A DNA stretch of 64,000 nucleotides from Vicinamibacterales bacterium (GCA_035699745.1 DASSPH010000030.1:578-64577); one strand, 5' to 3'; counted from the stretch's first letter, positions 1,247 through 28,340 are shown. A program made the numbers and translations. Notes: generated by a model from the sequence alone, not told the origin.

Positions 1247-1286
1247 CGTGGACCTGCCTGTGGCGGGGCGCGATCGGGAGAGGTGT

Positions 1287-4890
<3,604 letters not shown>

Positions 4891-4892
<2 letters not shown>

Positions 4893-7105: not shown

Positions 7106-8623
7106 TCAGTAGATCTGCTGGGTCCTGGCGACAATCACCTTCGGCGGCGTCACGCCGGCCGCGATCATCACCTCGCGAATCGCCGCTTCGGTCTCCGGCG
7201 ACGGCTTGAAGTTGCCGAACCGGTAGCCCACCGCAATCGCGAGCGGCGTCCAGCCGAACTTGTCATCCTTGTTCCAGACGGCAATCCTGGCCCCCTTCGC
7301 GGCCAGGAGCTTGACGACCTTCGGCAGGTTCTTGTAGGCCGCGGCGTGCATCGCGGTCTCGCCGTTCTTGTCCACGGCGTTGATGTCGGCGCCGAGATCG
7401 AGGAGCAGCTGCACGGCCTGGAGCACCTCCGGCTCGGTGCCGGCGTCCTCGCCGGGAGACCGCGTGCCGAGCCCGGCACAGGCCATCAGCGCCGTGCTGT
7501 TCTCCACGTTGGTCAGCGTCGTGTCGGCGCCGAGCGCGGCGAGCGTCTGCATCAACTCGACATCGGCGGTGAGCGACGCGAGCCAGAACGGCGTCGCGCC
7601 GATCTCGTTGGACCGCGTGTTGTTCAGATTCGCCTTCTTCGTCATTCGCGCGTTCACGTTGGCGCCGCGCGCGATCAGCGTCTTCACGAATTCGATGCTG
7701 CTCATCGCGCCCGAGCCGTCCGGCGGCGGATCGTTGTCGCCGACGCCGGGCTTGCGCACGGCGGTGATCGCGTGCAGGACGGTGTACCCGGGCAGATCCG
7801 CATTGGGATTGGCGCCCGAGTCGAGCAGGAACGACGCGAGCTCGTAGTGCGCGTTGGTCACGGCAATCAGCAGCGGCGTCGCTCCCGCCGGCGGCAGGCG
7901 GCCGCCGTACCCGCGCCGGCGCCCTGCGGGGATCGCGTCGTTCACGTCGGCGCCGGCGGCGAGGAGCGCGCGCGCGGCCTCGAGGCGCCCTTCGCGGGCG
8001 GCGAAGAACAGCGGCGTGAACCCGGACGGGACGCGCCGCTTCACGTCGGCGCCCGCTTCAATCAAGTCCTCGACGATCGCGGCATGCCCTTCGGCGGCCG
8101 CCCACATCAGTGCCGTCTGGCCGCGGCGTTCGTCTGCCGCGTCGACGCGCGCGCCGTTGGCGAGCAGCGCCTTCACGGCGCCGGCGGACCCGGTCCTCGC
8201 CGCCGTCATCAGCGGCGTCTCGCCGCCAGGCAGCGCGGCATTCGGGTCGGCGCCGGCCTTGATCAGCGCGTCCACGATCGCGCCGCTGCCGTTCGTGCAG
8301 GCGAGCGAGAGCGGCGTCACGCCGTACCGGCTCGCCGCGTTCACCCTGGCGCCGGCGCGAAGCAGCCGGTCCACCGTGCGGCGATCGTCGTGATAGACGG
8401 CCCAGTGCAGCGCCGTCATGCCGTCGGGCTGGGGTGCCGCGACGCTGACGCGCTGTTCGAGCAGCGCCGCAACCCGCGCCCAGTCCTTTGCCTCGGCGGC
8501 ATCGGCCAGGGCCGTTTCCGCGCTGCGCGTGTCGGCGGCCGGGACGCGCGCCCCCACCGCAGCCGGGCTCGCACACGCCAACAGGACGGCGGCGGCGACT
8601 CGACTACAACGCCAGCAGTTCAT
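7106..8623 (-). CDS. Secreted ankyrin-repeat protein.
   Basis: Multiple 33-aa repeats with G-TpLh.Aa..Gh..iv..Ll..GAdvn signatures (e.g. DGMTALHWAVYHDDRRTVDRLLRAGARVN). The signal peptide is MNCWRCSRVAAAVLLACASPAAVGA, so I start at the second Met (8623). Confidence 0.85.
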   Translation of the reverse strand: MNCWRCSRVAAAVLLACASPAAVGARVPAADTRSAETALADAAEAKDWARVAALLEQRVSVAAPQPDGMTALHWAVYHDDRRTVDRLLRAGARVNAASRYGVTPLSLACTNGSGAIVDALIKAGADPNAALPGGETPLMTAARTGSAGAVKALLANGARVDAADERRGQTALMWAAAEGHAAIVEDLIEAGADVKRRVPSGFTPLFFAAREGRLEAARALLAAGADVNDAIPAGRRRGYGGRLPPAGATPLLIAVTNAHYELASFLLDSGANPNADLPGYTVLHAITAVRKPGVGDNDPPPDGSGAMSSIEFVKTLIARGANVNARMTKKANLNNTRSNEIGATPFWLASLTADVELMQTLAALGADTTLTNVENSTALMACAGLGTRSPGEDAGTEPEVLQAVQLLLDLGADINAVDKNGETAMHAAAYKNLPKVVKLLAAKGARIAVWNKDDKFGWTPLAIAVGYRFGNFKPSPETEAAIREVMIAAGVTPPKVIVARTQQIY

Positions 8624-9944
8624 CGAGCTTTCCCTTGCTGTCGGCAAAGGCGTCCATCCGCACGCCGACGCGGTCGAGGAGCGTCAGGTGCAGGTTGGCG
8701 AGGGGCGTCGGCTCCGCATACTTGATGTGGCGCCCGCCCTTGAACCGGCCGCCCGCGCCGCCGGCGACGATCGTCGGCAGGTTGATGTGGTCGTGGATGT
8801 TGGGATCGCCCATCCCGCTGCCGTAGAGAATCAGCGAATGATCGAGCAGCGTGCCGTCGCCGTCGCGCGTCGATTTCAGCTTGTCGAGATAGTAGGCGAA
8901 CAGCGAGACGTGGAAGGCGTTGATCTTCGCCATCCGCGCGACCTTGTCCGGATCGTTGCCGTGGTGGGTCAGCGGATGGTGCGGATCGGGCACGCCGATC
9001 TCCGGATAGGTGCGGTTGCTCGTTTCCCGCGCGAGCTGGAACGTGATCACGCGCGTCACGTCGGCCTGCATCGCCAGCACCTGCAGGTCGAACATCAGCC
9101 TGGCGTGATCCGCATATGACGCCGGGACGCCGACGGGACGATCGAGATCCGGCAGCTGGTCGTCGGGCGTGGCTGCCTCCGCCTTCTGGATGCGGCGCTC
9201 CACTTCGCGAACGGTCTGCAGGTACTCGCCGACGCGCGCGCGATCCTCCGCGCCGAGCGTGGTCTGCAGCCGCGAGATGTCGTCGCGGACCCAGTCGAGC
9301 AGGCTGGCGCGCCGGCGCAGCGCGGCGCGCCGATCGGCGGGCGATCCGCCGTCGCCGAACAGCCGTTCGAAGACCACGCGCGGATGCGCCTCCGCCGGCA
9401 GCGGCGTCGTCGGCGACGACCAGGACAGATTGTTCTGATACACGCAGGCGTAGCCGTTGTCGCACTGGCCGACCATCTGGATCAGATCCATCGACAGCTC
9501 CAGCGACGGCAGCAGCGTCTGCTCGCCGAGCTGTTTCGCCGCGATCTGGTCGACGGTCGTCCCCAGGTAGTAGTCGGTGCTCTCGGTCCACTTCGCCTTC
9601 GCGGCGCTGAGGAACGCCGCGTTCGAGGTGGCGTGCGTGCCGGGGTAGGCGTTCTTCAGCTCCATGTTCGACAGGACGGTGAGCTGATCGACGAACGGCC
9701 GCAGCGACTGCAGCGTGGGCGACAGGTCGGCGAGCGTCGCGCCCGGCGGCGTCCAGCGCGGCAGATCGCAGCCCATCGGCATGTAGACGAAGCCGAGGCG
9801 GCGGACCGGACCGGCGGCGCTCTTCGCCAGCGCCGTCGTCGTCCACCGGGACGGCACCATAGCGTCGAGCAGCGGCAGGGCAAGGGCGGCCCCCATGCCG
9901 CGAAGGAACGTGCGGCGGGGCAGCGCTGGCTTCGGGATGATCAT
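8604..9944 (-). CDS. DUF1552 family protein (Tat-type signal).
   Basis: The N-terminus MIIPKPALPRRTFLRGMGAALALPLLDAM and the overall sequence are typical of DUF1552 proteins that pair with DUF1592-type proteins. It overlaps the upstream gene by 4 nt. Confidence 0.8.
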   Translation of the reverse strand: MIIPKPALPRRTFLRGMGAALALPLLDAMVPSRWTTTALAKSAAGPVRRLGFVYMPMGCDLPRWTPPGATLADLSPTLQSLRPFVDQLTVLSNMELKNAYPGTHATSNAAFLSAAKAKWTESTDYYLGTTVDQIAAKQLGEQTLLPSLELSMDLIQMVGQCDNGYACVYQNNLSWSSPTTPLPAEAHPRVVFERLFGDGGSPADRRAALRRRASLLDWVRDDISRLQTTLGAEDRARVGEYLQTVREVERRIQKAEAATPDDQLPDLDRPVGVPASYADHARLMFDLQVLAMQADVTRVITFQLARETSNRTYPEIGVPDPHHPLTHHGNDPDKVARMAKINAFHVSLFAYYLDKLKSTRDGDGTLLDHSLILYGSGMGDPNIHDHINLPTIVAGGAGGRFKGGRHIKYAEPTPLANLHLTLLDRVGVRMDAFADSKGKLDELLAL

Positions 9945-12310
9945 CTGGACTTCCTCATCTGGAAAGACGGGCTCTTCACGACGCCGAGGACGATCGACGA
10001 CATCCGGTAATTCTGCGCGCGCGCGGCGCGGACGATCGACCGAATCGCCGGGGCGTCGTAGTATTCGACGCCCCGCCCGAGCGCGTAAGTGTGGAGCTTC
10101 TCGGCGAGCGTGCCGACGAAGAGCTCCGGCCGGCGGACGAGCGCCGCCTCGAGGCCGTCCACGTCAGTGAACCTGGTGCCGTCGGGAAGGCTGCCGGCGA
10201 CGTCGATCGGCGATCCTGCTTCCGCGGCGCGGCGCCGTCCGACCGCATCGAAGCGCTCGAGCGCGAGGCCGATCGGATCCATCAGGTTGTGGCAGGGGGC
10301 GCACTGCGCGTTGCGCCGGTGTTCGGCGATCCGCTCGCGGACCGACAGGCGCCCGTCGACGGTGTTGTCCTTCAGCGCCGGCACGTCGGGCAGCGGCGGT
10401 GGAGGCGGCACGCCGAGCAGCGTGTCGAGCACGAACTTGCCGCGCAGCACCGGCGACGTGCGCGTCGCGTAGGAGGTCACCGTCAGCAGGCTGCCGTGGC
10501 GCAGCAGGCCGCCGCGCCAGGTGTCGGCCGGCAGCGCGACCCGGCGGAAGCGGCTGCCATACACGTGCGGGATGCCATAGTGCCTGGCCAGCCGCTGGTT
10601 CAGGAACGTGTACCTGGCAGTCAGGAGATCCAGAGCGCTGCGATCTTCGCGCAGGACGCTCTCGAAGAACAGCTCCGTCTCGCGCCGGAACGCCTGCTTC
10701 AGGTTGTTGTCGAAATCCGGGAAGAGCCGCATGTCCGGCGTGACCGACTCGAGGTTCACCAGGTGCAGCCACTGCGCCGCGAAGTTGGTCACCAGGGCGC
10801 GCGATCGCGGGTCCGCGAGCATACGCCGGACCTGCGTCTCCAGCACCGCGGGCTGGTGCAGCGTGCCGCGGGCGGCCGCACGCAGCAGCGCCTCGTCGGG
10901 AATGCTGCTCCACAAGAAGAACGACAGCCGCGATGCCAGCTCGAGATCCGGAATCCGGTACGGCGTATTGGCCGGGATGCCGGCGGGATCGCGCTCGACG
11001 CGGAACAGGAACTCCGGGCTGACCAGGATGGCGGCGAGACCCGCTTCGATGCCCGCCTCGAAGTCGCCGTCGCCGTCGCCGTCGCCGCGCGCGCTCCGAT
11101 ACAGCGTCATCGGGCCGCGCAGGTCCGCGCTGGTCACCGGCCGGCGATACGCTCGGCGCATCAGCGCGCCGAAGATCTGCTCCGGCGACCGGGAAACGAA
11201 GATGCGGCGGCGGCTGGGGGTCTCACCCGGGCCCTTCGCGGTGAACGGCCCGAGAATCGAGACCGAGTAGATCGCCGGCTGCACGCGCGGATGCCGATAG
11301 AAATTGAAATGCGTCTGGTACGGCTGCCGCGGTGTTTCCAGCAGGACCGACGGCTTCTTCGGGAACGCGACGCCAACCGCATGCGGACCGGCGGTCACCG
11401 CAAGGCGAACCGTGAGGTGGCGGTCGACGCTCTCATGCGACGGCTGCTCGGTCTCGGGCAGGCCGGGCTGCCGCTGCGGCGGGCTGACCGTGAAGAGCTG
11501 CACGCGCTGGCGATCGACCAGCACTTCGAGGTCGTGTGCTTCGCTGAGCCCCTCGACGTGTTCGTCGCGATCCCGCATCAACCGGACCTGGATCTCGTAC
11601 TCACCGTCGAGCGGAAAGGTGTAGTTGATCAGCGCGCCGCCGCGGGTGCCGATCGGCAGCCCCTCGATGTGTTCTTCCTGCGTCAGCTCCGCCGGGATCC
11701 GTATCGTCTCGCCGCCAGGGGAGCGTCCGGCGCGCCCCACGGCGAGCCGGCCGATCTTCTCCGCCGCCGACAGGTAGCGATCGAGCAGGGTCGGCGTGAG
11801 CGTGCCGACGGTGACGTTGTCGAATCCATAGCTGGATTCGTCGGCCGGCAGCAACGCCGCCGCGTCGATGTCGACGGCGAGCAGGTCGCGGATCGCGTTC
11901 TGGTACTCCGTCCGCGTCAGCCGGCGGATCGTCGCCGGCCGGCCGGGATCCGGCCGCGCCTTCGCGGCGGCGTCGAGGGCGGTCTCGAGCGACGCGACGA
12001 CCGCGTCATACGCCGCTTCGGTCGGGCGATCCTTCCCGATCGGCGGCATCTGCCTCGCGCGCAGCTTGCGCACGACCTTCTCCCACACCTCCGGATGGTC
12101 GGCAATCGTGCCGGTCATCACCGCGTCGAGGGCGAGATCTCCCTTTTTCTTGTCGGTGTCGTGGCAGGAAAGACAGTAGGTTTCGACGAGGTCGACGTGG
12201 GGCGGACGTCTCGCATGCAGCCCGGGGCGCAGGTTCACCGCGGCCGTGAGAACGACGACGCCGGCAAGGACGGCGAGGCGCGCGCGGCCCCGTGGAGCCA
12301 TGCGGCCCAT
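9941..12310 (-). CDS. DUF1592/DUF1588/DUF1585-type multidomain protein with an N-terminal cytochrome c motif.
   Basis: 789 aa. There is a signal/anchor segment followed by CLSCHD (CxxCH heme-binding motif) near the N-terminus. The architecture and its DUF1552 partner are typical of this Planctomycete/Acidobacteria gene pair. Confidence 0.8.
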   Translation of the reverse strand: MGRMAPRGRARLAVLAGVVVLTAAVNLRPGLHARRPPHVDLVETYCLSCHDTDKKKGDLALDAVMTGTIADHPEVWEKVVRKLRARQMPPIGKDRPTEAAYDAVVASLETALDAAAKARPDPGRPATIRRLTRTEYQNAIRDLLAVDIDAAALLPADESSYGFDNVTVGTLTPTLLDRYLSAAEKIGRLAVGRAGRSPGGETIRIPAELTQEEHIEGLPIGTRGGALINYTFPLDGEYEIQVRLMRDRDEHVEGLSEAHDLEVLVDRQRVQLFTVSPPQRQPGLPETEQPSHESVDRHLTVRLAVTAGPHAVGVAFPKKPSVLLETPRQPYQTHFNFYRHPRVQPAIYSVSILGPFTAKGPGETPSRRRIFVSRSPEQIFGALMRRAYRRPVTSADLRGPMTLYRSARGDGDGDGDFEAGIEAGLAAILVSPEFLFRVERDPAGIPANTPYRIPDLELASRLSFFLWSSIPDEALLRAAARGTLHQPAVLETQVRRMLADPRSRALVTNFAAQWLHLVNLESVTPDMRLFPDFDNNLKQAFRRETELFFESVLREDRSALDLLTARYTFLNQRLARHYGIPHVYGSRFRRVALPADTWRGGLLRHGSLLTVTSYATRTSPVLRGKFVLDTLLGVPPPPPLPDVPALKDNTVDGRLSVRERIAEHRRNAQCAPCHNLMDPIGLALERFDAVGRRRAAEAGSPIDVAGSLPDGTRFTDVDGLEAALVRRPELFVGTLAEKLHTYALGRGVEYYDAPAIRSIVRAARAQNYRMSSIVLGVVKSPSFQMRKSR

Positions 12311-12320
12311 GATACGCCCA

Positions 12321-12563
12321 TCAGCCGTCCTCGATCGCGCCGACCTCGATCATCACCCCCCGCGCGAGCGCCCGCTCGACCGCCAGTTCCGTCTGATCGC
12401 ATTCGAAGACAATGAGCGGAAACGTCTGCAGCACGCGGACCCGCGCGCCGGGGGTCACGCCCAGCGCCGCCAGCCGGTCCGCCCGGGCGGTGAGATCGCG
12501 CCTCAGGCGGGCGACCCGGCCGTGCGCCCCCGGCCGCAGCGAGGCAAGCGGAACGTGCGTCAT
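12321..12563 (-). CDS. feoA: FeoA family iron transport protein.
   Basis: 80 aa. Sequence LASLRPGAHGRVARL...LAALGVTPGARVRVLQTFPLIVFECDQTELAVERALARGVMIE is the FeoA SH3-like pattern. Confidence 0.85.
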   Translation of the reverse strand: MTHVPLASLRPGAHGRVARLRRDLTARADRLAALGVTPGARVRVLQTFPLIVFECDQTELAVERALARGVMIEVGAIEDG

Positions 12564-15465: not shown

Positions 15466-15575
15466 GTACGCGCGTTCGGGCGGGAACCGCCAGGAATTCT
15501 CGAGCTGACCAGGTAGCGGAGCGCTGGAAACACTGCCATGACGGGCGTCATACGCACCGCGCACCGGCCCGTTCA
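15466..15575 (+). promoter_or_regulatory. Candidate cobalamin (B12) riboswitch in the leader of the 15586-19031 operon.
   Basis: The RNA reads ...GGGCGGGAACCGCCAGGAAUUCUCGAGCUGACCAGGUAGCGGAGCGCUGGAAACACUGCCAUGACGGGCGUCAUAC.... It contains, in order, the GGGAA junction, GAAU, GAGCUGAC...AGCGG, the B12-box-like ACACUGCC and a GGGxGUCAU element. These are arranged as in the E. coli btuB leader as I recall it. Flanking GCGCG/CGCGC and CGGGC/GCCCG could form P1. Not verified with a covariance model. Confidence 0.3.
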
Positions 15576-15585
15576 TACTCGCTGC

Positions 15586-16275
15586 ATGGATCCCCTGAAA
15601 GGATCGAACTGGAGCAGTCCCGGAACGGTCGCGGGATTCGCGGATTCCCCGCCGAATCAGACGCTGATGAGCTATGCCGCCGCGGAACGCCGCCGCGGCG
15701 CCTCCACTGCCGTCGACCTGGGATGCGGCGCCGGCCGCAATCTCGTTCCGCTCGCCCAACAAGGCTGGAGCATCGTCGGCATCGATCTATCGCGTCCGAT
15801 GATCGACGCCGCGGGCGAGCGCGTCGCGGCCGACGGGTTATCGGCCCGCGTGCAGCTGGCGGTCGCGCCGATGGACGCGCTGCCGGTCGCGAGCGGCTGC
15901 GCCGATCTGGTGATCGCACACGGCATCTGGAACCTGGCGCGATCCGCCGCCGAGTTTCGCCGCGGGCTGCGCGAGGCGGCCCGCGTCGTCCGGCCCGGCG
16001 CGGCGCTGTTCGTGTTCACGTTCTCGCGCCGGACGCTGCCCGAGCCGGCGCGGCCGGTGACCGGCGAAGCGTTCGTCTTCACCGGCTTCTCGGGGGAGCC
16101 GCAGTGCTTCCTCACGGCGGAGGAGCTCGTCTCAGAACTGGCGGCCGCGGGTTTCGTGCCCGATGCCGCCGTGCCGCTCACGGAGCACAATGCGCCGCGT
16201 CCGGGATCGCTCCGCACCGGGAACGTTCCCGTGATCTTCGAGGCGGCCTTCCGGTTCGCCGGAGGCACGCGATGA
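15586..16275 (+). CDS. Class I SAM-dependent methyltransferase.
   Basis: Motif I is AVDLGCGAGRNLVPLAQQGWSIVGIDLSRPMIDAA. The post-I and motif II regions are present (ADLVIAHGIWNL). The start at 15586 was chosen so as not to overlap the putative riboswitch; 15538 is an alternative. Confidence 0.85.
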   Translation: MDPLKGSNWSSPGTVAGFADSPPNQTLMSYAAAERRRGASTAVDLGCGAGRNLVPLAQQGWSIVGIDLSRPMIDAAGERVAADGLSARVQLAVAPMDALPVASGCADLVIAHGIWNLARSAAEFRRGLREAARVVRPGAALFVFTFSRRTLPEPARPVTGEAFVFTGFSGEPQCFLTAEELVSELAAAGFVPDAAVPLTEHNAPRPGSLRTGNVPVIFEAAFRFAGGTR

Positions 16276-16475
16276 AGCCGCCGAAAATCCCGCTCAAGCC
16301 GGCGCACCCGGAGCGCACGTGCTGGGGCTGCGACCGCTACTGCGCCGCGGACGACCTCGCCTGCGGCAACGGAACGATCCGAACGCTGCACCCGATCGAG
16401 CTGTTCGGCGACGACTGGCTCGACTTCGCCGATCGCGACAAAGGATCGCGGTCCTCCTCCGAGCGCTCCGCGTGA
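16272..16475 (+). CDS. Small Cys-rich protein, DUF3079-like.
   Basis: MKPPKIPLKPAHPERTCWGCDRYCAADDLACGNGTIRTLHPIELFGDDW matches my recollection of the DUF3079 pattern (HPERxCWGCDxYC...LxCGNG...HP.ELFG.DW). ATGA overlap with the methyltransferase stop. Confidence 0.65.
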   Translation: MKPPKIPLKPAHPERTCWGCDRYCAADDLACGNGTIRTLHPIELFGDDWLDFADRDKGSRSSSERSA

Positions 16476-17899
16476 CCCCACGGCCTCCGCTCCTGCTGTG
16501 CCTGCTGTATCTCGCGCCGGCCCACGTCGCGCTGGCGCTCGCGTTCGGCGGCGTCGCGCTCGATCCGGCTGCCGCGACGGGATTCTTCTATCACTCGCGC
16601 ATGCTGGCGATCGTCCATCTCGTCACGCTGGGATGGATCACCGCGTCGATTCTCGGCGCGCTCTACATCGTCGGACCGGCGGCCCTGCGCACGTGGTTCC
16701 GCGCCGGATGGCTCGACTACACCGCGGCCGCCTTCGTGTGGATCGGCGTGACGGGCATGGTGGCGCACTTCTGGATCGTCGAGTACCGCGGCATGGCCTG
16801 GTCGGCCGCGATGGTGACGATCGGAATCGCCGCGGTGGGGATCCGCGTGGCTCCGCCGCTCTGGCGCGCGCCGATACCGGCCGCGGTGCGCACCCACATC
16901 CTCCTGGCGTTCGTGAACATCGCCGGCGCGGCGGTCATGGGCGTTCTGCTCGGCATCAACAAGGTGCACCCGTTCCTTCCCGGCTTCGTGCTGAACAACG
17001 TGTTCGCGCACGCCCACCTCGCGGCAGTCGGGTGGGCGGCGATGATGGTCGTCGGCGTGGCGTACCGTCTGCTGCCGATGGTGCTGCCGTCGCAGATGCC
17101 GGCGGGGCGGTCGCTGTGGGCGACCGCGGTGCTGCTCCAGGCGGGCGCGCTCGGACTCTTCGTCGCGCTGCTGCTGCGGGCGCCGGTGTCGTGGATCTTC
17201 GCCGTGATGATCGTCGCCGGGTTCGCGACGTTCCTCGGCCATGGAATCTGGATGGTGCGGCATCCTCGGCCGCGCCCCCCGGCGATCCCGGTGCCTGAGA
17301 CCACCGTTCTTCACGCCGTCGCCGCCGGCGCCTCGCTCGCCATCGCCTGCGGGCTCGGGTTGTGGCTGTCGGTCGCCGAACTGTCGCCGCAGACGCTGCG
17401 GGTGGCGATTGCCTACGGCGTGTTCGGACTCGTCGGCTTCCTGTCGCAGATGGTCGTGGCGATGAAAGGCCGGCTGCTGCCGCTCTTTGCGTGGTACTGG
17501 GCATCGGCGAGATCCGGGGGCGTGTCCCCGGTGCCGTCGCCGCACGAGATGCCCTGGCGCGGCGGGCAGGAGCTCGTGTTCGTGCTCTGGCTGTTCGGGG
17601 TGCCGGCGCTCGCCGGCGGGCTGGCGTTCGACGCCGTTCCGTTCGTGCGCGCGGCCGCGTGGTCGCTGCTGGCCGCCACGCTGCTCGATTCGGCGCAAGC
17701 GGCCATCATCCTGCGCCACGCCTTCCGCGCGGCGGCCCCGCTCGGCCGACGGACAAAGGCTCCGGCGGGGGATATGATGGGCGTCATACCGCCGCGTGCG
17801 AGCGCGCCGGATACTGACGGTCATGCCGCTGAACGCCTGCGAGCTCGAGATCGATCTGTTCTGCCGCGGCATCCGGCTGTCCCCGAGCACCGAGGGTGA
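16472..17899 (+). CDS. Polytopic (~12 TM) His-rich membrane protein, possibly heme-copper-oxidase-subunit-I/NnrS-like.
   Basis: GTG at 16472 overlaps the previous stop (GTGA). There are many hydrophobic segments. Conserved-looking His pairs occur inside TM segments (FYHSRMLAIVHLVTLGW and NNVFAHAHLAAVGW). The family assignment is uncertain. Confidence 0.6.
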   Translation: MTPRPPLLLCLLYLAPAHVALALAFGGVALDPAAATGFFYHSRMLAIVHLVTLGWITASILGALYIVGPAALRTWFRAGWLDYTAAAFVWIGVTGMVAHFWIVEYRGMAWSAAMVTIGIAAVGIRVAPPLWRAPIPAAVRTHILLAFVNIAGAAVMGVLLGINKVHPFLPGFVLNNVFAHAHLAAVGWAAMMVVGVAYRLLPMVLPSQMPAGRSLWATAVLLQAGALGLFVALLLRAPVSWIFAVMIVAGFATFLGHGIWMVRHPRPRPPAIPVPETTVLHAVAAGASLAIACGLGLWLSVAELSPQTLRVAIAYGVFGLVGFLSQMVVAMKGRLLPLFAWYWASARSGGVSPVPSPHEMPWRGGQELVFVLWLFGVPALAGGLAFDAVPFVRAAAWSLLAATLLDSAQAAIILRHAFRAAAPLGRRTKAPAGDMMGVIPPRASAPDTDGHAAERLRARDRSVLPRHPAVPEHRG

Positions 17900-19031
17900 C
17901 GCGCAGCGCATCAAGCGCACCCGCGCCGGCCTGGGCTCCGGTCTCGAGCTGGTGCTGCCGACCGGCTCGCGCCTGAAGCCGGCGATCTGGATGAACGCGC
18001 CGGTGGTCGAGTCCTTCGCCCGGTCGTCGCCGTACGTGCTGCACAGCGGCGACGCGGGGCACACCATCGTCGACGAACGCAGCGGCGAGCGCTACCCGGT
18101 GCGGCTGCCCGAGGCGCCGGAATGGTACGCGTGGGAAACCTCCCGCGGCACGCCGATGGGCCGGATCGGCGTCCTGCAGGGCACGTACCTCGGGATCTAC
18201 GTCAACCCCGTCTGCGACTTCTGGCGATCGAACCTCGAGTGCCGGTTCTGCACGACCGGCCGGAACGTCGGCGACGCGGAAGCCGCGGCGAAGACGGTCG
18301 AGGAAGTCGTGGAAACCTGCCGGGCCGCGAAACGCGAGTCCGGCGTGACGTTCGTACATCTCAACGGCGGGTTTCAGGGCGGCCATGCGCTCGAGTTCAT
18401 CGAGCCGTTCGTCCGGGCGATCAAGCAGCAGGTCGGGCTGCTCGTCGGCGTGCAGCTCGCGCCGGAGCGCGAGCTGTGGCGGTACGACCGCCTGATCGCG
18501 CTCGGCGTCGATCATTTCTCGTTCTGCATCGAGTTCATCGATCCGTCGTGGTTCGCGGAGATCTGTCCCGGCAAGGCCCGAACGCTTGGCCAGGACCTCT
18601 TCTTTCAGGCCATGGATCACTGCGCGGCGCGGCTGCCGCGCGGCGCCGTTTCCGGCGAGCTCATCGCCGGCATCGAGCCGATCGCACAGACCCTCGCCGG
18701 CATCGAACGGATCGCCGAGCGCGGAGCGTTTCCCACCGTCTGCATCTTCCGGCCGACCGCCGGGTCGCAGTTGTCCGGCTGGCAGTCGCCCGCCTACGAA
18801 GACATGCGCGCCGTGATGGCGGCGATGTACGAAGCCTGCCGCCGCCATCGGATCCCGATCGGCGTGGCGCCGAACATCGAGGTCAGCCTGGTGGTGACGC
18901 CGGACGATGCGGCGCTGCTCGCGCCGCGGACACCGGGCTTCTACGCCTACGAGGCGTGGCGGCGGACGCTGCGCGTCGCGGCGCGGCCGCTCTTCCGCCA
19001 CCGCATCCGGCGCGCGGCCGCCGCGTCCTGA
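17823..19031 (+). CDS. Radical-SAM-like protein with an atypical cluster motif.
   Basis: YVNPVCDFWRSNLECRFCTTGRN has the '...NLxCxFC' core of radical SAM enzymes, but the first Cys is replaced by Ser and another Cys sits 8 residues upstream (Cx8CxxC). The TIM-barrel-like remainder includes VTFVHLNGG, GVDHFSFCIE and GELIAGIEP. The start at 17823 overlaps the upstream gene by 77 nt and is uncertain. Confidence 0.6.
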   Translation: MPLNACELEIDLFCRGIRLSPSTEGDAQRIKRTRAGLGSGLELVLPTGSRLKPAIWMNAPVVESFARSSPYVLHSGDAGHTIVDERSGERYPVRLPEAPEWYAWETSRGTPMGRIGVLQGTYLGIYVNPVCDFWRSNLECRFCTTGRNVGDAEAAAKTVEEVVETCRAAKRESGVTFVHLNGGFQGGHALEFIEPFVRAIKQQVGLLVGVQLAPERELWRYDRLIALGVDHFSFCIEFIDPSWFAEICPGKARTLGQDLFFQAMDHCAARLPRGAVSGELIAGIEPIAQTLAGIERIAERGAFPTVCIFRPTAGSQLSGWQSPAYEDMRAVMAAMYEACRRHRIPIGVAPNIEVSLVVTPDDAALLAPRTPGFYAYEAWRRTLRVAARPLFRHRIRRAAAAS

Positions 19032-19138: not shown

Positions 19139-21400
19139 ATGCCGCCCGTGTCGCCTCAGCCGCTTCGAACGCCGTCGCCCACGCGGGCGCTCACTCTCGC
19201 CAGTGTTTCCTTTGCGCTCTGTTTCGCCGCCTGGGGTCTGATTGGCGGTCTGGCGCCGGCCTTCGCGTCGCTCTACCACCTGAGCGGGTCGCAGACCGCG
19301 CTGCTCGTGGCCGTCCCCGTTCTCCTCGGCTCGCTGGCGCGGCTGCCGATGGGCATGCTCACGGATCGGTTTGGCGGTCGCGCGGTGTTCAGCGCGCTGC
19401 TCGCGTTCTCCGCGCTGGCCGCCTTCATCGTGCCGCTGACCGGCAGCTATCGCGCGCTGCTGGTCGCCGCCTTCCTGGTCGGCGTGGCCGGATCGTCGTT
19501 CGCCGTCGGCGCGGCGTTCGTCTCGCGCTGGTCGCCGCGCGCGCAGCAGGGGACGGCGCTCGGCATCTACGGCCTCGGCACGCTCGGCCAGTCCCTCGCG
19601 GTGTTCATCGGTCCGCTGGTCGCGGCGCGCTGGGGCTGGGAAGCCGTCTTCCGCGGCACCAGCGCGCTGCTGCTGATCTGGGCGCTGGTGTTCGTGACGC
19701 TGGCGCGAAATCCGGTCCATGCGTCGCGTCCGGCAGGTGTCGGCGCCATGCTCGCCGTGCTGCGCACCGCGCCGCGGGCGTGGGTGCTCGGCGCGTTCTA
19801 TTTCCTCACCTTCGGCGGCTTCGTCGCGTTCTCCATCTACCTGCCGACGCTGCTGCGCGTGCAGTTCGGCCTCGCGCCCGCGGACGCCGGCTTCCGCGCC
19901 GCCGGCTTCGTCGTGCTGGCGACGCTGGTGCGCCCGGCGGGCGGGTGGCTCGCCGACCGGATCGGCGGCGCGCAGGTGCTGTCGTGGGTGTTCGGTGGCG
20001 TCGGCATCTTCGCGCTGCTGCTCACGTGGCCGTCGATGGTGCCGTTCACCGTCGGCGCCCTGGCGTGCGCGTTGCTGATGGGCGTCGGCAACGGGGCGGT
20101 GTTCAAGCTCGTTCCCGAGCAGTTCCCGAAGGAGACCGGCACGGTCACCGGTCTGGTCGGCGCCCTCGGCGGCATCGGCGGCTTCTTTCCGCCGCTGCTG
20201 CTCGGCCTGTTCAGCGATCGCTTCGGCGTGATCTGGCCGGGCTTCCTGCTGCTGTCGGCGACGGCGATCGGACTGCGGGCGGTCAACGAGCGCGTGTTCC
20301 GTCCAGGCGACGTCGAATGGACGCGGGCGCTGCCGGTCGCCGCCCGTCAGGGACTGGAGCGGGTGCGCGCGGGCGCGTGGGCGACGCTGGTCACCGCCGG
20401 CCTCGCCGCGACGATCGTCGTCGGCTCGCGCAACCTGCAGCACTTCGACGCGGCGCTCGTCGGCTACACCTTCGCCACGCTGTTTGCCGCCTTCGGCATC
20501 AGCTACCGCTACGCGATGTGGCTGCATCGTCCGCCGACGCGCATGTACTGGCGCCGCGGATGGCAGGCGTTCTTCTCACGCCCGCGCGTGGCGCGGAACG
20601 CCGTGAGTCTCGGCCGCCGCGCGATCGTCGAGTTCGCCGCCAATGCCTACATCTTCCGGCGCGGCCGCCTGCGCGGTCTCGCGCACTGGCTGATCATGTG
20701 GGGCTGCGTGCTCGCCGCGGCGATCACGTTCCCGCTGGTGTGGGGCTGGATTCACTTCGAAACCGTGCCGGGCGCGCTCCACACCTACCGCACGTTCATG
20801 TTCGGGTTTCCCGTCCAGGATTTCCCCGTCGAATCGGTGATCGCCTTCGTCGTGTTTCACGGGCTGGTCTGGTCGGCGTTCCTGGTGATCGCGGGAGTGA
20901 TGCTCGCCTTCAGACGACGGATGATCGACCACGGCGCGGTCGCCGTACAGCAGTTCGGCCAGGACATGCTGCCGTTGCTGCTCCTGTTTGCCATCAGCGT
21001 CACCGGGCTGCTGCTCACCGCCAGCTACACGTGGATGCGCGGTTACGCCTACGACTTCCTCGCCATCCTGCATGCGGCGACGGTGATCGTGACGCTGCTC
21101 TGGCTGCCGTTCGGCAAGCTGTTTCACGTCTTCCAGCGGCCGGCGCAGCTCGGCGTCGGCTTCTACAAGGACGCCGGACGGGAACAGGCCCAGGCGCGAT
21201 GCCGGCGCTGCGCGCAGCCGTTTGCCTCGGTGCCGATGATCCGCGATCTCACCGAAGTCGAACGCGAGCTGGGGTTCCGGTACGAGCTGTCGGGCGGCGG
21301 CCATTACCAGGACGTGTGTCCTCGCTGCCGCCGTGCGCTCTTCGGGCTCGCGCAAGGCGCACTGTGGCGTCGATACCTCGACCCGGGAGAGGCAGGTTAG
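19139..21400 (+). CDS. Fusion protein: NarK-like nitrate/nitrite MFS transporter + NarI/HdrE-like di-heme cytochrome b domain + C-terminal 4-Cys zinc-ribbon.
   Basis: Residues ~1-400 form a 12-TM MFS with the nitrate/nitrite-porter glycine-rich signature ([12 protein letters not shown]...[15 protein letters not shown]). Residues ~470-690 carry 5 TM segments with intramembrane His (LAHWLIMWG...[21 protein letters not shown]) and the NarI-family motif [10 protein letters not shown]. The tail carries CRRC...(35 aa)...CPRC. Confidence 0.8.
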
Positions 21401-21404
21401 GGCA

Positions 21405-23675
21405 GTGGCGCAGGTTCCGGTTACCCCTCTACGCATCATCGAACGGTTCGGCCCGCACCTCTCGTCGATGACGGGCGATCGCCTGTCGACGAGCATCGAG
21501 CCCGAGCGCCTGGTGAAGACCCACTGCTGTTTCTGCGGACAGCAGTGCGGCATCCAGCTGAAGGTCCGCAACGAGCAGGTGATCGGGTTCGAGCCGTGGG
21601 AGGAATTCCCGTTCAACCGCGGGATGCTCTGCCCGAAAGGCGTGAAGCGCTACCTGCAAGGCTCCCATCCCGACCGCTTGACGACGGCGTTGCGCCGCGA
21701 CACGTCGGCGCCCGGCGGGTTCGCCGCGCTGCCGTACAGCGAGGCGATCGCCCGCACCGCCTCCGAGATCGCGCGGATCCAGCAGGCCTACGGGGCGGGG
21801 TCGGTCGCCGTGCTGGGCGGCGCCAGCCTGACCACGGAAAAGACGTACCTGCTCGGCAAGTTCGCGCGCGTCTGCCTCAAGACCCCGTTCATCGATTACA
21901 ACGGCCGGCTCTGCATGGTCAGCGCCGGCGCGGCGAACAAGAAGGCGTTCGGCATCGACCGGACGACGAACCCGTGGTCCGACATGGTCGGCACCGAGGT
22001 CATCTGGGTCGCCGGGTCGAACGTCGCGGAGTGTTCGCCGATCACCACCAACTACATCTGGCAGGCGCGCGAGCAGGGAGCGAAGATCATCGTCCAGGAC
22101 CCGCGCATCACCCCGGTGGCGCGCACCTGCGACCTGTACCTGCCGGTGAAGCCCGGCCGGGACGCGGCGCTCTTTGCCGGCGTGCTGCAGATCATGATCG
22201 AGCGCGACTGGCTCGATCACGGGTTCATCCGGGACTGCACGTCCGGCTTCGAGGCGGTCGCCGAATACTGCCGCGAGTGGACGCTGGCGCGCACCGCGGA
22301 GGTGACCGGCGTGCCGCAGCGGGCGCTGCTGCAGGCAGCCGAATGGTGGGGCACGGCCCGGACGAGCTTCCTCTTCCACGCCCGCGGCATCGAGCACCAC
22401 TCGAACGGAGTGCAGAACGCGCTGGGCACGATCAACCTCGTGCTCGCGTCCGGCCGCATCGGCAAACCCAAGAGCGGCTACGGCACCATCGTCGGACAGG
22501 CCAACGGACAGGGCGGGCGCGAGCACGGTCAGAAGTGCGACCAGCTTCCCGGATGGCGGGACATCACCAACCCGGCGCACCGCGAGTACATCGCCGGCGT
22601 GTGGGGGATCGACGAAAAGGAGATGCCCGGTCCGGGCGTCGACGCCTACGAGCTGTTCCGCAAGATCGATCGCGGCGAGATCAAGGCGCTGCTGTCGATC
22701 TGCTTCAATCCCAAGGTCTCGCTGCCGGACAACAGCTTCGTGACCCGCTGCCTCGAGAAGCTCGAGTTCTTTGCCGCGATCGACTTCTTCCTGAACGACA
22801 CCGCGTGGCACGCCGACATCGTGCTGCCGGGAAGCCTGCAGGAAGAAGACGAGGGGACCGTCACCCAGGTCGAGGGGCGCATCATCAAAATCAACCAGGC
22901 GGTCGCGTGCCCGGGGGAGGCGCGCCAGGACTGGCGCATCATCCAGGATCTCGCCGCCGCGCTGGGCCGGCCGAAGGGTTTCACGTTCGGCGAGCCGCGC
23001 GAGATCTTCGAAGAGCTGCGCCTCGCCAGCAAGGGGGGCGTCGCCGACTACTCGGGCGTCACCTACGAAAAGATCACGGAACGGCTCGGTGTGTTCTGGC
23101 CCTGCTACAGCGAAGACCCGCGCACCGGCGAGCCGATCGACCACGCCGGCACGCCCCGGCTGTTCGAGCGGGGGAGCTACAACCCGGTCGCCAGGGGGAA
23201 CGGACCGTTCTACTTTCCCGACGGCCGCGCGCGCTTCAACGTCGCGGAATACCGGACGCCCGTCGACGACGCAGACGACGAGTTTCCGATCTACCTGACG
23301 ACGGGTCGTGTGGTCAGCCAGTTCCTGTCGGGAACGCAGACGCGGCGCATCGGTCCGCTGGTGCGGCAGTACGCGGAGCCGCGCATCGAGATGCACCCGC
23401 GGCTCGCCGCCAAGGCGGGGATCGCCGACGGCGACTGGGTCACCGCGGAAACGCGGCGCGGCGCGATGACGCTGCGGGCGCAGGTGGTCACGACCATCCG
23501 CCCCGACACCATCTTCATTCCGTATCACTGGGCCGGGCCGAAGAGCGCGAATCAACTCACCGTGGCGGCGCAGGATCCGATCAGCAGGATTCCCCAGTAC
23601 AAGGTCTGCGGCTGCCGCGTGCGGAAGGCGTCAGCGCCGCCGGAGTACGCCGGCGTCCTCGAACCGCAGCAGTAG
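21405..23675 (+). CDS. Molybdopterin (bis-MGD) oxidoreductase, assimilatory/NarB-NasA-type nitrate reductase catalytic subunit, with no Tat signal.
   Basis: The N-terminal 4Fe-4S motif is [10 protein letters not shown]...MLCPKG. The Mo-ligand region [18 protein letters not shown] has Cys-Met as in Nap/Nas/NarB, not the Cys/Sec-His of formate dehydrogenases. [26 protein letters not shown] is typical of Nas/NarB. The start (GTG 21405 versus ATG 21468) is uncertain. Confidence 0.85.
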
Positions 23676-23687
23676 CCGGCATCCTTC

Positions 23688-24341
23688 ATGGCCAAACCGG
23701 ACTATCTCCACTTCTTCATCGATCCGAACCGCTGCATCGGGTGCCAGGCGTGCGTGCAGGCGTGCACCGAGTGCGATACCCACCGCGGCGAGTCGATGAT
23801 TCACCTCGAGTACGTCAGCCGGCCGGAGAGCGTGCAGACGGTGCCGGTGGTGTGCATGCATTGCGAGCAGCCCACGTGCGCGGAGGTCTGCCCGGCGGAC
23901 GCGATCAAGCGGACCGGCGACGGCGTGGTGCAGTCGGCCCGCAAGCCGCGCTGCATCGCCTGCGGCAACTGCGTCATGGCGTGTCCGTTCGGCGTGCCCG
24001 AGCTGTACGAGGATCGCAAGATCATGATGAAGTGCGACATGTGCTACGACCGGTCGAGCATCGGCAAGAAGCCGATGTGCGCCACGGTCTGCCCGAGCCA
24101 GGCGCTGTTCTTCGGCACGCGGGAGCAGATCGCGCAGCTCCGGCCGCTGTCGGCGCCGGTGAACACCTTCCAGTTCGGCGCCCAGACGATCACCACGCAG
24201 GTGCACGTCATGGTGCCGCGCGCGCTCGCCCAGCCCCGCGCCTACGTCGACGTGGCGGCGGCGATGGACGAGCAGCCGCGCAGCCGCGCCGTGTCGCTGA
24301 AGGTGCTCGGCAGCGACCCCTACGCCGAGGTCGAGGTATAG
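23688..24341 (+). CDS. 4Fe-4S dicluster (four-cluster, DmsB/FdnH/HybA-like) electron-transfer subunit.
   Basis: Four Cys groups are present: [37 protein letters not shown] and CDMC...CATVCP. Confidence 0.9.
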
Positions 24342-24345
24342 CGTC

Positions 24346-24993
24346 ATGCCCTATCCGAGTTCCGACCCGCGCGCGCCGATCGATCCCGCCATCAGTTCGC
24401 CGGGGCGTGAGGGGCTGACCGGGACCGCGCCGGCGAACCTCTACGGCCCGGCGTCGCCGAGCGAGCAGATCACGGTCGCCCCCGATTTCGCGCCCGCCGA
24501 GGCGCAGCCGGCCTGGCGCCAGGACTTTCCGATCGACTGGCCGCAGGACCTCTACGTCGAGCGCCGGGAGTTCATGAAGTTCATGGTGCTCACCAGCGGC
24601 GCCCTCGCGATCGGACAGCTGTGGATCGCGCTCCAGAACTGGTACCGCGATTACCGCGGACTGGCGCCGGTTCAGCGCATCGCCTCGGTCGACGAGATCG
24701 CGGTGGGCGCCGCCCTGAGCTTCCGGTATCCCGACGAGCACGAGCCCTGCCTGCTGCTGCGCCTGTCGGAGAGCGAGTTCGTCGCCTTCAACCAGAAGTG
24801 CACGCACCTGTCGTGCGCGGTGATTCCGCGGCCCGCCGAAGGCAGCTGGTATTGCCCCTGCCACGAGGGACGATTCGATCTCCGGACGGGGGCGCCCACG
24901 GCGGGACCGCCGAGACGGCCGTTGACCCGCATCCTGCTCGATCGGAAAGGGCGGGACATCTACGCGGTCGGCGAGGAGGCGCGGACGCTATGA
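24346..24993 (+). CDS. Membrane-anchored Rieske [2Fe-2S] protein.
   Basis: The Rieske motifs are CTHLSC...(17 aa)...CPCHEGRF. A TM helix follows an RREF motif (ERREFMKFMVLTSGALAIGQLWIAL), with a ~70-aa N-terminal extension before it. The gene starts 5 nt after the FeS subunit stop. Confidence 0.85.
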   Translation: MPYPSSDPRAPIDPAISSPGREGLTGTAPANLYGPASPSEQITVAPDFAPAEAQPAWRQDFPIDWPQDLYVERREFMKFMVLTSGALAIGQLWIALQNWYRDYRGLAPVQRIASVDEIAVGAALSFRYPDEHEPCLLLRLSESEFVAFNQKCTHLSCAVIPRPAEGSWYCPCHEGRFDLRTGAPTAGPPRRPLTRILLDRKGRDIYAVGEEARTL

Positions 24994-25235
24994 AGCCCGT
25001 CGCCAGGCGGCCGTTCACCCGCGACCAGCGGACCACGATCATCAGCGGCATGCTCGTGTTCGTCATCATGCTGGTCGTGCTGCAGCTCTGGCTGCTGACC
25101 GCGACGATGAACGCCTGGCTGGGCGGGGATGCATCGCTGGTCTGGCCCGGCGCCCTGGCGAGCGCCGCGGCGCTGGGGCTGAACGTCGGGCTCTACGGCT
25201 ACCTGCGCCGCATGGAGCGCGCGCGCCGCGGCTAG
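24990..25235 (+). CDS. Small two-TM membrane protein (81 aa).
   Basis: ATGA overlap with the Rieske stop. Sequence: MKPVARRPFTRDQRTTIISGMLVFVIMLVVLQLWLLTATMNAWLGGDASLVWPGALASAAALGLNVGLYGYL. Confidence 0.6.
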   Translation: MKPVARRPFTRDQRTTIISGMLVFVIMLVVLQLWLLTATMNAWLGGDASLVWPGALASAAALGLNVGLYGYLRRMERARRG

Positions 25236-25287: not shown

Positions 25288-25794
25288 ATGACGGACGACT
25301 CCGCGGCGCTGCTGCGCGAACACGGCGTGCAGGTGACCGCCCAGCGCCTGGCGGTGCTGCGGGCGGTCGCGGGGCAGCCGCACATCACCGCGGACGCCGT
25401 GGCCGGCGCCGTGCGACGCGAGATCGGCGCGATCTCGCTGCAGTCGGTCTACGACGCGCTGGGGCTGCTCGTCGCCAAGGGGCTCCTCCGGCGCATTCAG
25501 CCGCCCGGATCGCCCGCGCGCTTCGAGGATCGCGTCGGCGACAATCACCATCACCTCATCTGCCGCACCTGCGGCCGCGTCGTCGACGTCGACTGCGCGG
25601 TGGGATCCGCACCCTGTCTCAGCCCGAGCGGCGACAACGGCTACGAGATCGACGAAGCCGAAGTCGCGTACTGGGGCCGATGCCCGGACTGTCTGGAGCG
25701 GGCGCGCCCGAAGCCGCCGCGGCGCGGCGGGCGAGCGACGCCGCGCGTCCGGCGTTCGATCGACCAACACACCCGCCGGCGTCATCGCCGGTGA
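25288..25794 (+). CDS. furA: Fur-family transcriptional regulator (FurA/PerR-like, upstream of katG).
   Basis: Winged-helix N-terminus ([12 protein letters not shown]...ADAV). Metal-site residues are [16 protein letters not shown] and a C-terminal CPDC. The furA-katG arrangement is as in actinobacteria. Confidence 0.85.

Positions 25795-28340
<2,546 letters not shown>

Follow-up and report, generated by a model that had tools for sequence, protein, structure and literature searches.

Within a 64,000-nucleotide stretch of a Vicinamibacterales genome (GCA_035699745.1, DASSPH010000030.1:578-64577; hereafter the window), positions 19139-25235 carry a module of five genes that we propose encodes an undescribed membrane-bound quinol:nitrate oxidoreductase, a reading to which we assign a probability of about 55%. 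Such an enzyme would follow the logic of NarGHI with Nas-type parts, would hold a Rieske centre on the outer face of the membrane and would have its catalytic site in the cytoplasm. The same genes had been singled out in an earlier note, made by a model from the sequence alone, as a candidate quinol-linked nitrate reductase, and we followed that note up with profile searches, structure comparison, a phylogeny and a survey of gene neighbourhoods. The arrangement of the five genes is far beyond chance and they are inherited as a unit. From their content we infer the location of the molybdenum and iron-sulfur subunits, quinol as the electron donor, nitrate reduction itself and the role of the Rieske protein.

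The window has a G+C content of about 70%, which makes raw lists of open reading frames (ORFs) noisy, and genes were therefore chosen by filtering on G+C at third codon positions (GC3) together with inspection of the translations. All five genes of the module lie on the plus strand, and their GC3 of 0.88-0.95 led us to read the frames as coding. In order they encode a fusion of a NarK-type transporter with a cytochrome b domain (g1), a catalytic molybdenum subunit (g2), an iron-sulfur subunit (g3), a Rieske protein (g4) and a small transmembrane protein of the DUF6755 family (g5). The successive junctions measure +4, +12, +4 and -4 nucleotides, the last being an ATGA overlap. The description of five co-directional genes with gaps of at most 12 nucleotides or overlapping stop and start codons is thus accurate; the order in which the earlier note named the parts is not, since the NarK-cytochrome b gene stands first, ahead of the molybdenum subunit, the iron-sulfur protein, the Rieske protein and the small transmembrane protein.

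That these genes belong together is seen from their conservation. An exhaustive Rieske search of representatives clustered at 50% identity gave 62 clusters below E = 1e-30, and a scan of one genome per species, queried with an 11-sequence Rieske alignment, gave at least 592 matches, the best 80 loci of which were examined. The 81 loci referred to throughout come from metagenomes and genomes of about ten phyla, with gene content determined by tblastn as far as the contigs reach. Wherever the contig allows, the order cytochrome b-Mo-FeS-Rieske-DUF6755 is kept on one strand in every locus, and stop and start codons often overlap between the genes. The best 80 loci come from Acidobacteriota (Vicinamibacteria, Blastocatellia, Thermoanaerobaculia and Bryobacterales), Planctomycetota, Myxococcota, Chloroflexota (including the isolate Herpetosiphon sp. 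NSE202), Gemmatimonadota, Armatimonadota, Verrucomicrobiota, Binatia and others, and a 1.8-Mb contig from ENA holds the same five genes between wholly different neighbours. It is this identical order, within the reach of each contig, in all 80 loci and in the ENA contig, between unrelated flanks, that makes a chance arrangement untenable, and the set first described from the window is indeed co-conserved across phyla.

Conservation of the module extends to its sequence. The closest homologues of the molybdenum subunit, 84-91% identical, come from soil metagenomes and metagenome-assembled genomes of Vicinamibacterales, and JGI names them "assimilatory nitrate reductase catalytic subunit". Across phyla the subunits are 68-86% identical (e.g. 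loci L022, L024 and L051 against the window), with 58-60% for the most divergent, those of Deinococcus and locus L077. Homologues 56-57% identical occur on plasmids of four Deinococcus strains; the full module was confirmed on one of these plasmids, pDrdI of D. wulumuqiensis NEB 479, and D. psychrotolerans is, from its Mo and Rieske matches, probably another cultured carrier. The Deinococcus copy lies near IS6 insertion elements, and this proximity, together with 68-86% identity between phyla, indicates that the whole module has moved laterally, and recently, among soil bacteria. On pDrdI, PGAP annotation gives the module genes only generic names.

The second gene (21405-23675; GTG start, 756 amino acids) encodes a Nas-type catalytic subunit of the molybdenum bis(pyranopterin guanine dinucleotide), or Mo-bisPGD, family, with the Pfam domains Molybdop_Fe4S4, Molybdopterin and Molydop_binding. 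There is also an internal ATG, at 21468; in the annotation of homologues, which have 756-757 residues, the start corresponds to the GTG. The cysteine motif of the FS0 cluster lies at 21522-21551, and both motifs on which the earlier note had relied are present, namely the Cys-Met molybdenum-ligand context RLCMVSA (21906-21926, residues 168-174) and the ten-residue segment of the GQxNxxGGRE type, given there as GQ.NGQGGRE (22494-22523, residues 364-373). Of the NCBIfam models NasC scores best, at 760 bits (below its equivalog cut-off of 1100), followed by formate dehydrogenase alpha (521 bits), haloarchaeal NasA (332) and NapA (233). In a neighbour-joining tree (686 columns, 200 bootstraps, 14 module sequences, references from annotated plasmids) the module subunits form one clade with 100% support and are sister, again with 100% support, to four NasC-type enzymes; the Nas of Proteobacteria and Bacteroidota, NapA, AioA and the formate dehydrogenases all fall outside this pair. 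The subunit thus groups with NasC-type nitrate reductases rather than with formate or arsenite enzymes, in keeping with the Nas-type assignment of the earlier note.

The nearest relatives outside the module, 38-47% identical, come from Skermanella, a Mycobacterium, Paenibacillus and Deinococcus grandis, and they are ordinary Nas enzymes: nirB is adjacent in all four, nirD or a small Rieske-type gene is also present in three of the four, and a NarK-type transporter lies nearby in each. Among solved structures the best sequence matches are formate dehydrogenases, and we considered and rejected that identity on active-site residues and phylogeny. In an alignment with five solved formate dehydrogenases, the (selenocysteine/Cys)-His pair is replaced by Cys-Met and the catalytic Arg of RGQNNVQG by Val; because the His and the catalytic Arg are replaced by Met and Val, formate oxidation by this subunit is unlikely. 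Kinship with AioA, prompted by the AioB-like Rieske protein described below and by the literature, was likewise rejected, as AioA branches elsewhere and is 23% identical. A twin-arginine translocation (Tat) signal on the molybdenum subunit, which the earlier note had reported absent, is possible in none of the loci inspected; in many a stop codon stands about 40 codons before the FS0 cysteines, and those 40 or so residues are a conserved non-signal sequence, LPxDxxxIxxFGPH. These signatures mark the predicted protein as a Nas-type molybdoenzyme that has a Cys ligand and lacks an export signal.

The partners of this enzyme are of another kind than those of Nas. The third gene (23688-24341, plus strand, 217 amino acids) encodes a four-cluster [4Fe-4S] electron-transfer subunit resembling the beta subunits DmsB, FdnH and HybA, with a Pfam Fer4_11 match and four Cys groups. 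Its NCBIfam scores are 95.6 bits for DmsB, 92 for HybA and 91 for FDH3-beta, all below the cut-offs, and 31 bits for NarH. It has no transmembrane helix by hydropathy and no signal peptide, and its gene adjoins that of the molybdenum subunit in every locus reaching that far. The fifth gene (24990-25235, plus strand) encodes DUF6755 (PF20540, 108 bits), an 81-residue two-helix transmembrane hairpin whose ends are both basic and which hydropathy analysis places in the cytoplasm at either end. It stands directly 3' of the Rieske gene in 81 of 81 loci as well as in Deinococcus, and is a module-specific small subunit. Profile searches therefore sustain the view that the partners are of respiratory type (a four-cluster protein, a di-haem cytochrome b and a membrane Rieske protein) instead of NAD(P)H or ferredoxin modules.

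The first gene (19139-21400, plus strand; ATG start, 753 amino acids) begins with a NarK-type domain (19139-20323) with twelve transmembrane helices and continues with about 360 residues that lack a Pfam match (20324-21400), which we read as a six-helix cytochrome b domain for two haems that ends in a cytoplasmic tail of the pattern CxxC...H...CxxC. Outside Vicinamibacteria this domain is a stand-alone gene. By the positive-inside rule the Arg-rich loop at residues 457-515, the loop at 586-609 and the C-terminal tail are cytoplasmic, as is the N-terminus of g1, and this placement agrees with attachment to the cytoplasmic C-terminus of NarK. Invariant in 62 sequences are H516, H574, H645 and H663, and, in the cytoplasmic tail, C688, C691, H722, C727 and C730; the 457-515 loop and this Cys4-His tail form large, highly conserved cytoplasmic surfaces. 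Judging by their positions, the ligands would be H516 and H663 for the inner-face haem and H574 and H645 for the outer-face haem.

Homology of this domain had to be sought at a distance. A profile of 31 diverse members, aligned by hhalign with Escherichia coli NarI, gave E = 0.0014 (probability 17%, 98 columns), with H645 and H663 falling on the helix-V haem ligands H187 and H205 of NarI within a shared PF..L.H motif. QmoC and TcuB also give weak NCBIfam matches. The domain has no sequence match in the PDB and no Pfam domain, including cytochrome b and Nitrate_red_gam, and an AlphaFold model (mean predicted local distance difference test, pLDDT, 74) has no significant Foldseek match, NarI ranking first by probability (0.80; TM-score 0.45, E = 0.33) amid noise from G-protein-coupled receptors. 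An FdnI-type assignment, prompted by the 1+1+2 histidine pattern, was set aside, its hhalign E being 0.57 against 0.0014 for NarI. Because of the NarI alignment and the weak QmoC and TcuB matches, we regard the domain as a putative distant relative within the NarI/HdrE superfamily whose proximal half has diverged, and the NarI-type assignment of the earlier note would hold at the level of remote homology. Known cytochromes b of the NarI/HdrE/DsrM type pass electrons to iron-sulfur partners on the cytoplasmic face of the membrane. The module-specific family comprises more than 7000 clusters at 90% identity, all of its database names being "hypothetical" or "MFS". One such "MFS transporter" in RefSeq, WP_114673479.1 from D. 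wulumuqiensis pDrdI (locus L082, 6784-7896), is the stand-alone cytochrome b and has no MFS domain; its name probably spread from the NarK-cytochrome b fusions of Vicinamibacteria.

The fourth gene (24346-24993, plus strand; Pfam Rieske) encodes a membrane-anchored Rieske [2Fe-2S] protein, and here our analysis departs from the earlier note, which had pictured an all-cytoplasmic complex and had missed a twin-arginine motif. A conserved cytoplasmic N-terminal peptide, WRQDFPIDWPQDLYV (24514-24558), is followed by the motif ERREFMKF (24559-24582), a transmembrane helix (24580-24636) and the cluster motifs CTHLSC (24799-24816) and CPCH (24853-24864). In 42 diverse representatives R73 and R74 are the only invariant residues ahead of the cluster motifs, and the consensus YV[AES]RR[DE]FxKF[LM]V, with RR in 81 of 81 loci, F at +3 in 72 and K at +5 in 72, precedes a moderately hydrophobic helix; as a sequence pattern this is what would be called a textbook twin-arginine motif. 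Nearly invariant as well are C152, H154, C157, C170, C172 and H173, which include the two extra cysteines of the disulfide of bc-type Rieske proteins. Against solved structures the family profile matches AioB (E = 1.7e-18) and the Thermus bc-type Rieske protein (E = 2.4e-17) best, then the b6f and bcc Rieske proteins, with the cytoplasmic dioxygenase-type ferredoxins far weaker (E = 4e-9 to 5e-6). The top NCBIfam model for g4 is the arsenite oxidase small subunit AioB (41.8 bits, below cut-off), and the best plasmid matches outside the module are also AioB, in alignments that span the RR and transmembrane region.

Since the protein belongs to the AioB/bc-type class and bears an invariant Tat motif and the disulfide cysteines, the Rieske domain should be a Tat substrate that remains tethered to the membrane at its outer face. 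Conservation also extends to the 15 residues ahead of RR (WRxDFPIxWxxDxYV). A conserved stretch in this position is unusual for a signal peptide, which suggests that the anchor is uncleaved and that the N-terminal peptide works on the cytoplasmic side. We looked for Rieske fusions that would fix the topology independently and found none of use: one (P0295) is a frameshift artefact, and the other (P0315) merely adds N-terminal transmembrane helices. The latter, a 393-residue Rieske homologue representing a metagenome cluster, has about five extra transmembrane helices before the RR-helix segment, an architecture resembling that of the dual Sec/Tat-inserted Rieske proteins of actinobacteria.

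A transporter accompanies the module nearly everywhere. The NarK half of g1 is of the NNP family and matches MFS_1 (167 bits over residues 16-350) and TIGR00886 (222 bits, below the cut-off of 311.7), and hydropathy places its twelve helices at residues 17-382. The earlier note had listed NarK as fused to the cytochrome b, yet NarK is not a constant part: the fusion occurs in Vicinamibacteria only, Blastocatellia, Chloroflexia, Phycisphaerae and Deinococcus have a separate narK gene, usually just after DUF6755, and in about 37 other loci an anion channel of the SLAC1/TehA type (PF03595, E = 1e-50; e.g. L047, 10771-11832) takes its place. In all but two of the 54 loci with complete flanks a transporter is fused or adjacent. 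That two unrelated anion transporters serve as alternatives leads us to argue that transport of nitrate and/or nitrite is part of the module's job, and it implies a nitrate or nitrite role for the bacterial SLAC1 homologues beside it.

The remaining neighbours bear on physiology. RIC/ScdA di-iron repair proteins recur in 17 loci, Crp/Fnr regulators in 9, NnrS in 6 and sigma-54 response regulators in 5, and 24 loci carry at least one of RIC/ScdA, Crp/Fnr and NnrS. By tblastn with NirB and NirD, nirB and nirD are found within 10 kb in none of the 81 loci and nowhere in the window, and no nitrite reductase family appears among the annotated ORFs of the window or the recurrent neighbours, NirK, NirS and NrfA not having been searched for directly; within these bounds the window indeed lacks a visible nitrite reductase, as had been stated. 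Nor does annotation of the recurrent neighbours reveal a conserved cytochrome c or cupredoxin partner.

These observations suggest to us the following scheme. The cytochrome b would bind the molybdenum and four-cluster subunits at its cytoplasmic side, as NarI binds NarGH, and the Rieske domain would be positioned above the distal haem at the outer face, where together with the conserved outer loops of the cytochrome b it would form a site of (mena)quinol oxidation. Oxidation of quinol at the outer face would release protons outside, and the electrons would pass from the outer to the inner haem, through the four clusters to FS0 and on to molybdenum, where nitrate would be reduced to nitrite inside the cell; the resulting redox loop would conserve energy. 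NarK or the SLAC1/TehA channel would import nitrate, remove nitrite, or both. Because neither nirB nor nirD is linked and RIC, NnrS and Crp/Fnr genes lie nearby, a dissimilatory role, in respiration or in redox balancing at low oxygen, is more likely than an assimilatory one.

Several points weigh against this scheme. The five-protein complex is predicted here from genes alone. The chief difficulty is the Rieske centre, which on the outer face has nothing evident to do if the haems carry both electrons inward; we know of no NarI-type enzyme that uses a Rieske centre, and every Rieske protein of this class known to us donates to a c-type cytochrome or cupredoxin or, in Aio, accepts electrons from molybdenum. 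The match of the cytochrome b to NarI is weak (hhalign probability 17%, Foldseek E = 0.33, no Pfam match), and its proximal histidines are split between two helices, where NarI has both on a single helix. By the precedent of AioB, a Tat-bearing Rieske protein could carry a signal-less molybdenum subunit out of the cytoplasm. Lastly, assimilation with nir genes elsewhere in the genome is compatible with the lack of a linked nitrite reductase.

The AioB precedent leads to an outward-facing enzyme, in which the molybdenum and iron-sulfur subunits would bind the Rieske protein in the cytoplasm and leave with it by Tat hitch-hiking, as AioA does with AioB, so that nitrate would be reduced outside. 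We think this unlikely, and are as reserved about its donor side, on which the Rieske protein and cytochrome b would oxidise quinol in a pNar-like, Q-cycle-type manner with the b haems returning the second electron. It would make sense of the invariant Tat motif and give the Rieske protein a clear role as donor to the iron-sulfur subunit; the closest solved relatives of that protein include AioB, whose partner AioA is also signal-less, and in haloarchaeal pNar clusters the partners of the outward-facing nitrate reductase are a Rieske protein and a cytochrome b. However, it leaves the near-obligatory NarK or SLAC1/TehA, and the NarK fusion, unaccounted for; the cytochrome b is NarI-like, not bc-type, with its large conserved cytoplasmic surfaces and Cys4-His tail; the molybdenum subunit is sister to cytoplasmic NasC enzymes and unrelated to AioA; and no ortholog has gained a Tat signal of its own. 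A little less probable again is that the complex is as we describe but its role assimilatory, a quinol-driven Nas feeding a nitrite reductase encoded elsewhere, in which case the database label would be physiologically right. The sister relationship to bona fide Nas enzymes, the mostly aerobic, heterotrophic soil life of the carriers, the occurrence of NarK in nas operons too and the JGI annotation of the molybdenum subunit as assimilatory all speak for it. Yet nirB or nirD lies within 10 kb in 0 of 81 loci, as against four of four NasC-type relatives inspected, and the recurrent neighbours are genes of nitric oxide stress and Crp/Fnr regulators, not of nitrogen assimilation. A passive SLAC1/TehA channel would also fit nitrite efflux better than uptake, and assimilation would not need an energy-conserving membrane wire.

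That the module catalyses a different reaction altogether we hold to be quite improbable. Nitrite might be oxidised inside and the electrons sent out through the haems and the Rieske protein, or another oxyanion such as chlorate, selenate or iodate might be the substrate. Rieske proteins of this class normally donate to c-type cytochromes or cupredoxins of the periplasm, an AioB-like Rieske protein partners the molybdenum subunit in iodate reductase as well as in arsenite oxidase, and the substrate is not readable from sequence. Against this, the module matches nitrate reductases in its active-site motifs and its phylogeny, the NarK family transports nitrate and nitrite specifically, a conserved cytochrome c or cupredoxin partner is missing from the neighbourhood, and enzymes of the AioA/IdrA type do not have the Cys ligand found in the module. 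Hardly credible is that the genes are mere neighbours, e.g. an ordinary Nas beside an unrelated Rieske/cytochrome b pair, as order and adjacency are kept in 81 loci across phyla between unrelated flanks, stop and start codons overlap in many cases, and in the loci examined neither DUF6755 nor the module cytochrome b occurred apart from the module. Electrons may also enter from periplasmic donors. A bolder possibility, to which we give about as little credence as to an assimilatory role, is a further class of nitrate reductase beside Nar, Nap, Nas and pNar: a Rieske/di-haem-b quinol oxidase with Qo-type bifurcation but no Q cycle. Its transmembrane low-potential branch would end in the cytoplasmic Nas-type molybdoenzyme in place of a Qi site, and the outer-face Rieske protein would pass the other electron to periplasmic carriers. 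Spread laterally through soil phyla, a class of this kind could, on the same doubtful footing, explain how nitrate is turned into nitrite by Acidobacteria and others with neither Nar nor Nap.

Should our preferred reading, a quinol:nitrate oxidoreductase with its site in the cytoplasm, be correct, it would matter well beyond this genome. Thousands of sequences from soils and sediments are now counted as "assimilatory nitrate reductase"; if they are linked to the respiratory chain, surveys misassign much of the nitrate-reducing potential of Acidobacteriota, Planctomycetota, Myxococcota, Chloroflexota, Gemmatimonadota and others, and the sources of nitrite and nitric oxide in soil are underestimated. 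Acidobacteria that reduce nitrate to nitrite with "nasA" genes and without Nar or Nap have been described (Eichorst et al. 2018, PMC5900883), and the module is a candidate for nitrate reduction in those organisms. DUF6755 and an unannotated cytochrome b family gain a context, and the pairing of a Rieske centre with a NarI-type cytochrome b poses a bioenergetic puzzle. With cultured carriers at hand (D. wulumuqiensis, probably D. psychrotolerans, and Herpetosiphon sp. NSE202), the module is directly testable.

A promoter scan found no sigma-70-type site, and its terminator-like matches lie inside genes and are uninformative. Upstream are feoB (minus strand), a UbiE-like methyltransferase (15538-16275, plus strand), a 526-residue polytopic membrane protein (16319-17899, plus strand) and, directly 5' of the module, a 411-residue protein with weak radical-SAM similarity (17796-19031, plus strand). 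The methyltransferase recurs near the module in loci L002, L016 and L021 and the radical-SAM-like protein in L021, L078 and L081; these two neighbours could be accessory to maturation or related to quinone, or their presence could be coincidence. The membrane protein has a sub-threshold COX1-like match (E = 3.5e-4) and is dissimilar to the NnrS found near other module copies. Directly 3' of the module lies a furA-katG-like pair, a Fur-family regulator (25288-25794, plus strand) followed by a catalase-peroxidase (25813-28014, plus strand; peroxidase domain, 733 amino acids).

Farther off, a full-length pyruvate:ferredoxin/flavodoxin oxidoreductase of 1230 residues (1200-4892, plus strand) hints at low-oxygen metabolism in what is presumed to be an aerobic acidobacterium. 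A 525-residue protein made almost entirely of ankyrin repeats (7106-8683, minus strand) has a composition uncommon in bacteria. A DUF1552 protein (8604-10163, minus strand) adjoins a multi-domain PSCyt/PSD "planctomycete cytochrome" (DUF1585/1587/1588/1592/1595 with a cytochrome c domain; 9941-12349, minus strand), the two forming a known, uncharacterised gene pair. Among the larger remaining ORFs annotated in the window, which comprise these together with a pyrroloquinoline quinone (PQQ) dehydrogenase and ABC transporters, no nitrogen-cycle genes were recognised.

How does the module compare with known systems? Its closest catalytic relatives are the Nas enzymes (NasC of Bacillus and the Nas of actinobacteria, Skermanella and Deinococcus), with which it shares 38-47% identity, the Cys-Met context, the GQxNxxGGRE segment, the lack of a signal peptide and a NarK neighbour. 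In Nas, however, electrons arrive through NAD(P)H subunits of the NasB/NirB type, ferredoxin or flavodoxin, and nirBD lie alongside; the module has no NasB/NirB-type gene and has instead the four-cluster protein, the di-haem cytochrome b, the Rieske protein and DUF6755. Two surveys of the DMSO reductase family describe NasC/NasA as exclusively cytoplasmic and assimilatory, and one of them (PMC7331816) has it as a rule, which the module breaks, that canonical four-cluster or anchor subunits are used by none of the enzymes in the Fdh/Nas/Aio/Nap clade.

With NarGHI the module shares the plan of an alpha (molybdenum), a beta (iron-sulfur) and a putative gamma (di-haem b) subunit, a NarK that is linked or fused where SLAC1/TehA does not replace it and, as we predict, a cytoplasmic site. 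NarG, in contrast, has about 1200 residues and an Asp ligand, whereas the module's subunit is small and Cys-ligated and scores 51 bits with the NarG hidden Markov model (HMM; cut-off 1084); its beta subunit is of the 217-residue DmsB type rather than NarH (31 bits with that HMM, cut-off 524), NarJ is lacking, and the Rieske protein and DUF6755 are added. Nap differs in the Tat signal on NapA and in its NapB/NapC or NapGH partners, whereas the module's molybdenum subunit has no signal and scores 233 bits with the NapA HMM (cut-off 904).

Archaeal pNar resembles the module in its accessory proteins, being encoded in a cluster with a Tat-type Rieske protein (NarB) and a membrane cytochrome b (NarC; comparison locus L100). 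Unlike the module's, its enzyme is of the NarG/NarH type, NarG bears a Tat signal, the site faces outward and NarC is a cytochrome b of the bc-complex kind. The claim that a Rieske protein and a cytochrome b feed a nitrate reductase only in archaeal pNar was too strong, since Rieske/cytochrome b pairs of bc type have also been proposed to serve bacterial enzymes, in the nap cluster of Caldithrix abyssi with its Rieske and cytochrome b genes and in the Qcr-dependent Nap of Campylobacter. In contrast to the module, those are canonical bc-type complexes delivering electrons through c-type cytochromes to periplasmic NapA. AioAB and IdrAB resemble the module in pairing a signal-less Mo-bisPGD subunit with a Tat-bearing Rieske protein, and the module's Rieske protein, with its twin-arginine motif, moderately hydrophobic helix and cluster motifs with disulfide cysteines, is of the AioB type and fits the Tat-dependent bc1/b6f/AioB class. 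In AioA, however, the cluster is [3Fe-4S] and molybdenum lacks a protein ligand, where the module has a Cys ligand context and a four-Cys FS0, and Aio has no four-cluster subunit, cytochrome b or transporter.

Full-text searches, with subscription-only literature outside their scope, found no published description of the module, of DUF6755 or of the module cytochrome b, and the surveys give the Nas clade no such partners; within that scope the architecture is undescribed, as the earlier note had supposed. The module is outside Nas in its partners and linkage, outside Nar in its alpha and beta subunits, and outside Nap, pNar and Aio as well, although it shares parts or logic with each. We class its product as a probable complex iron-sulfur molybdoenzyme whose set of subunits is new.

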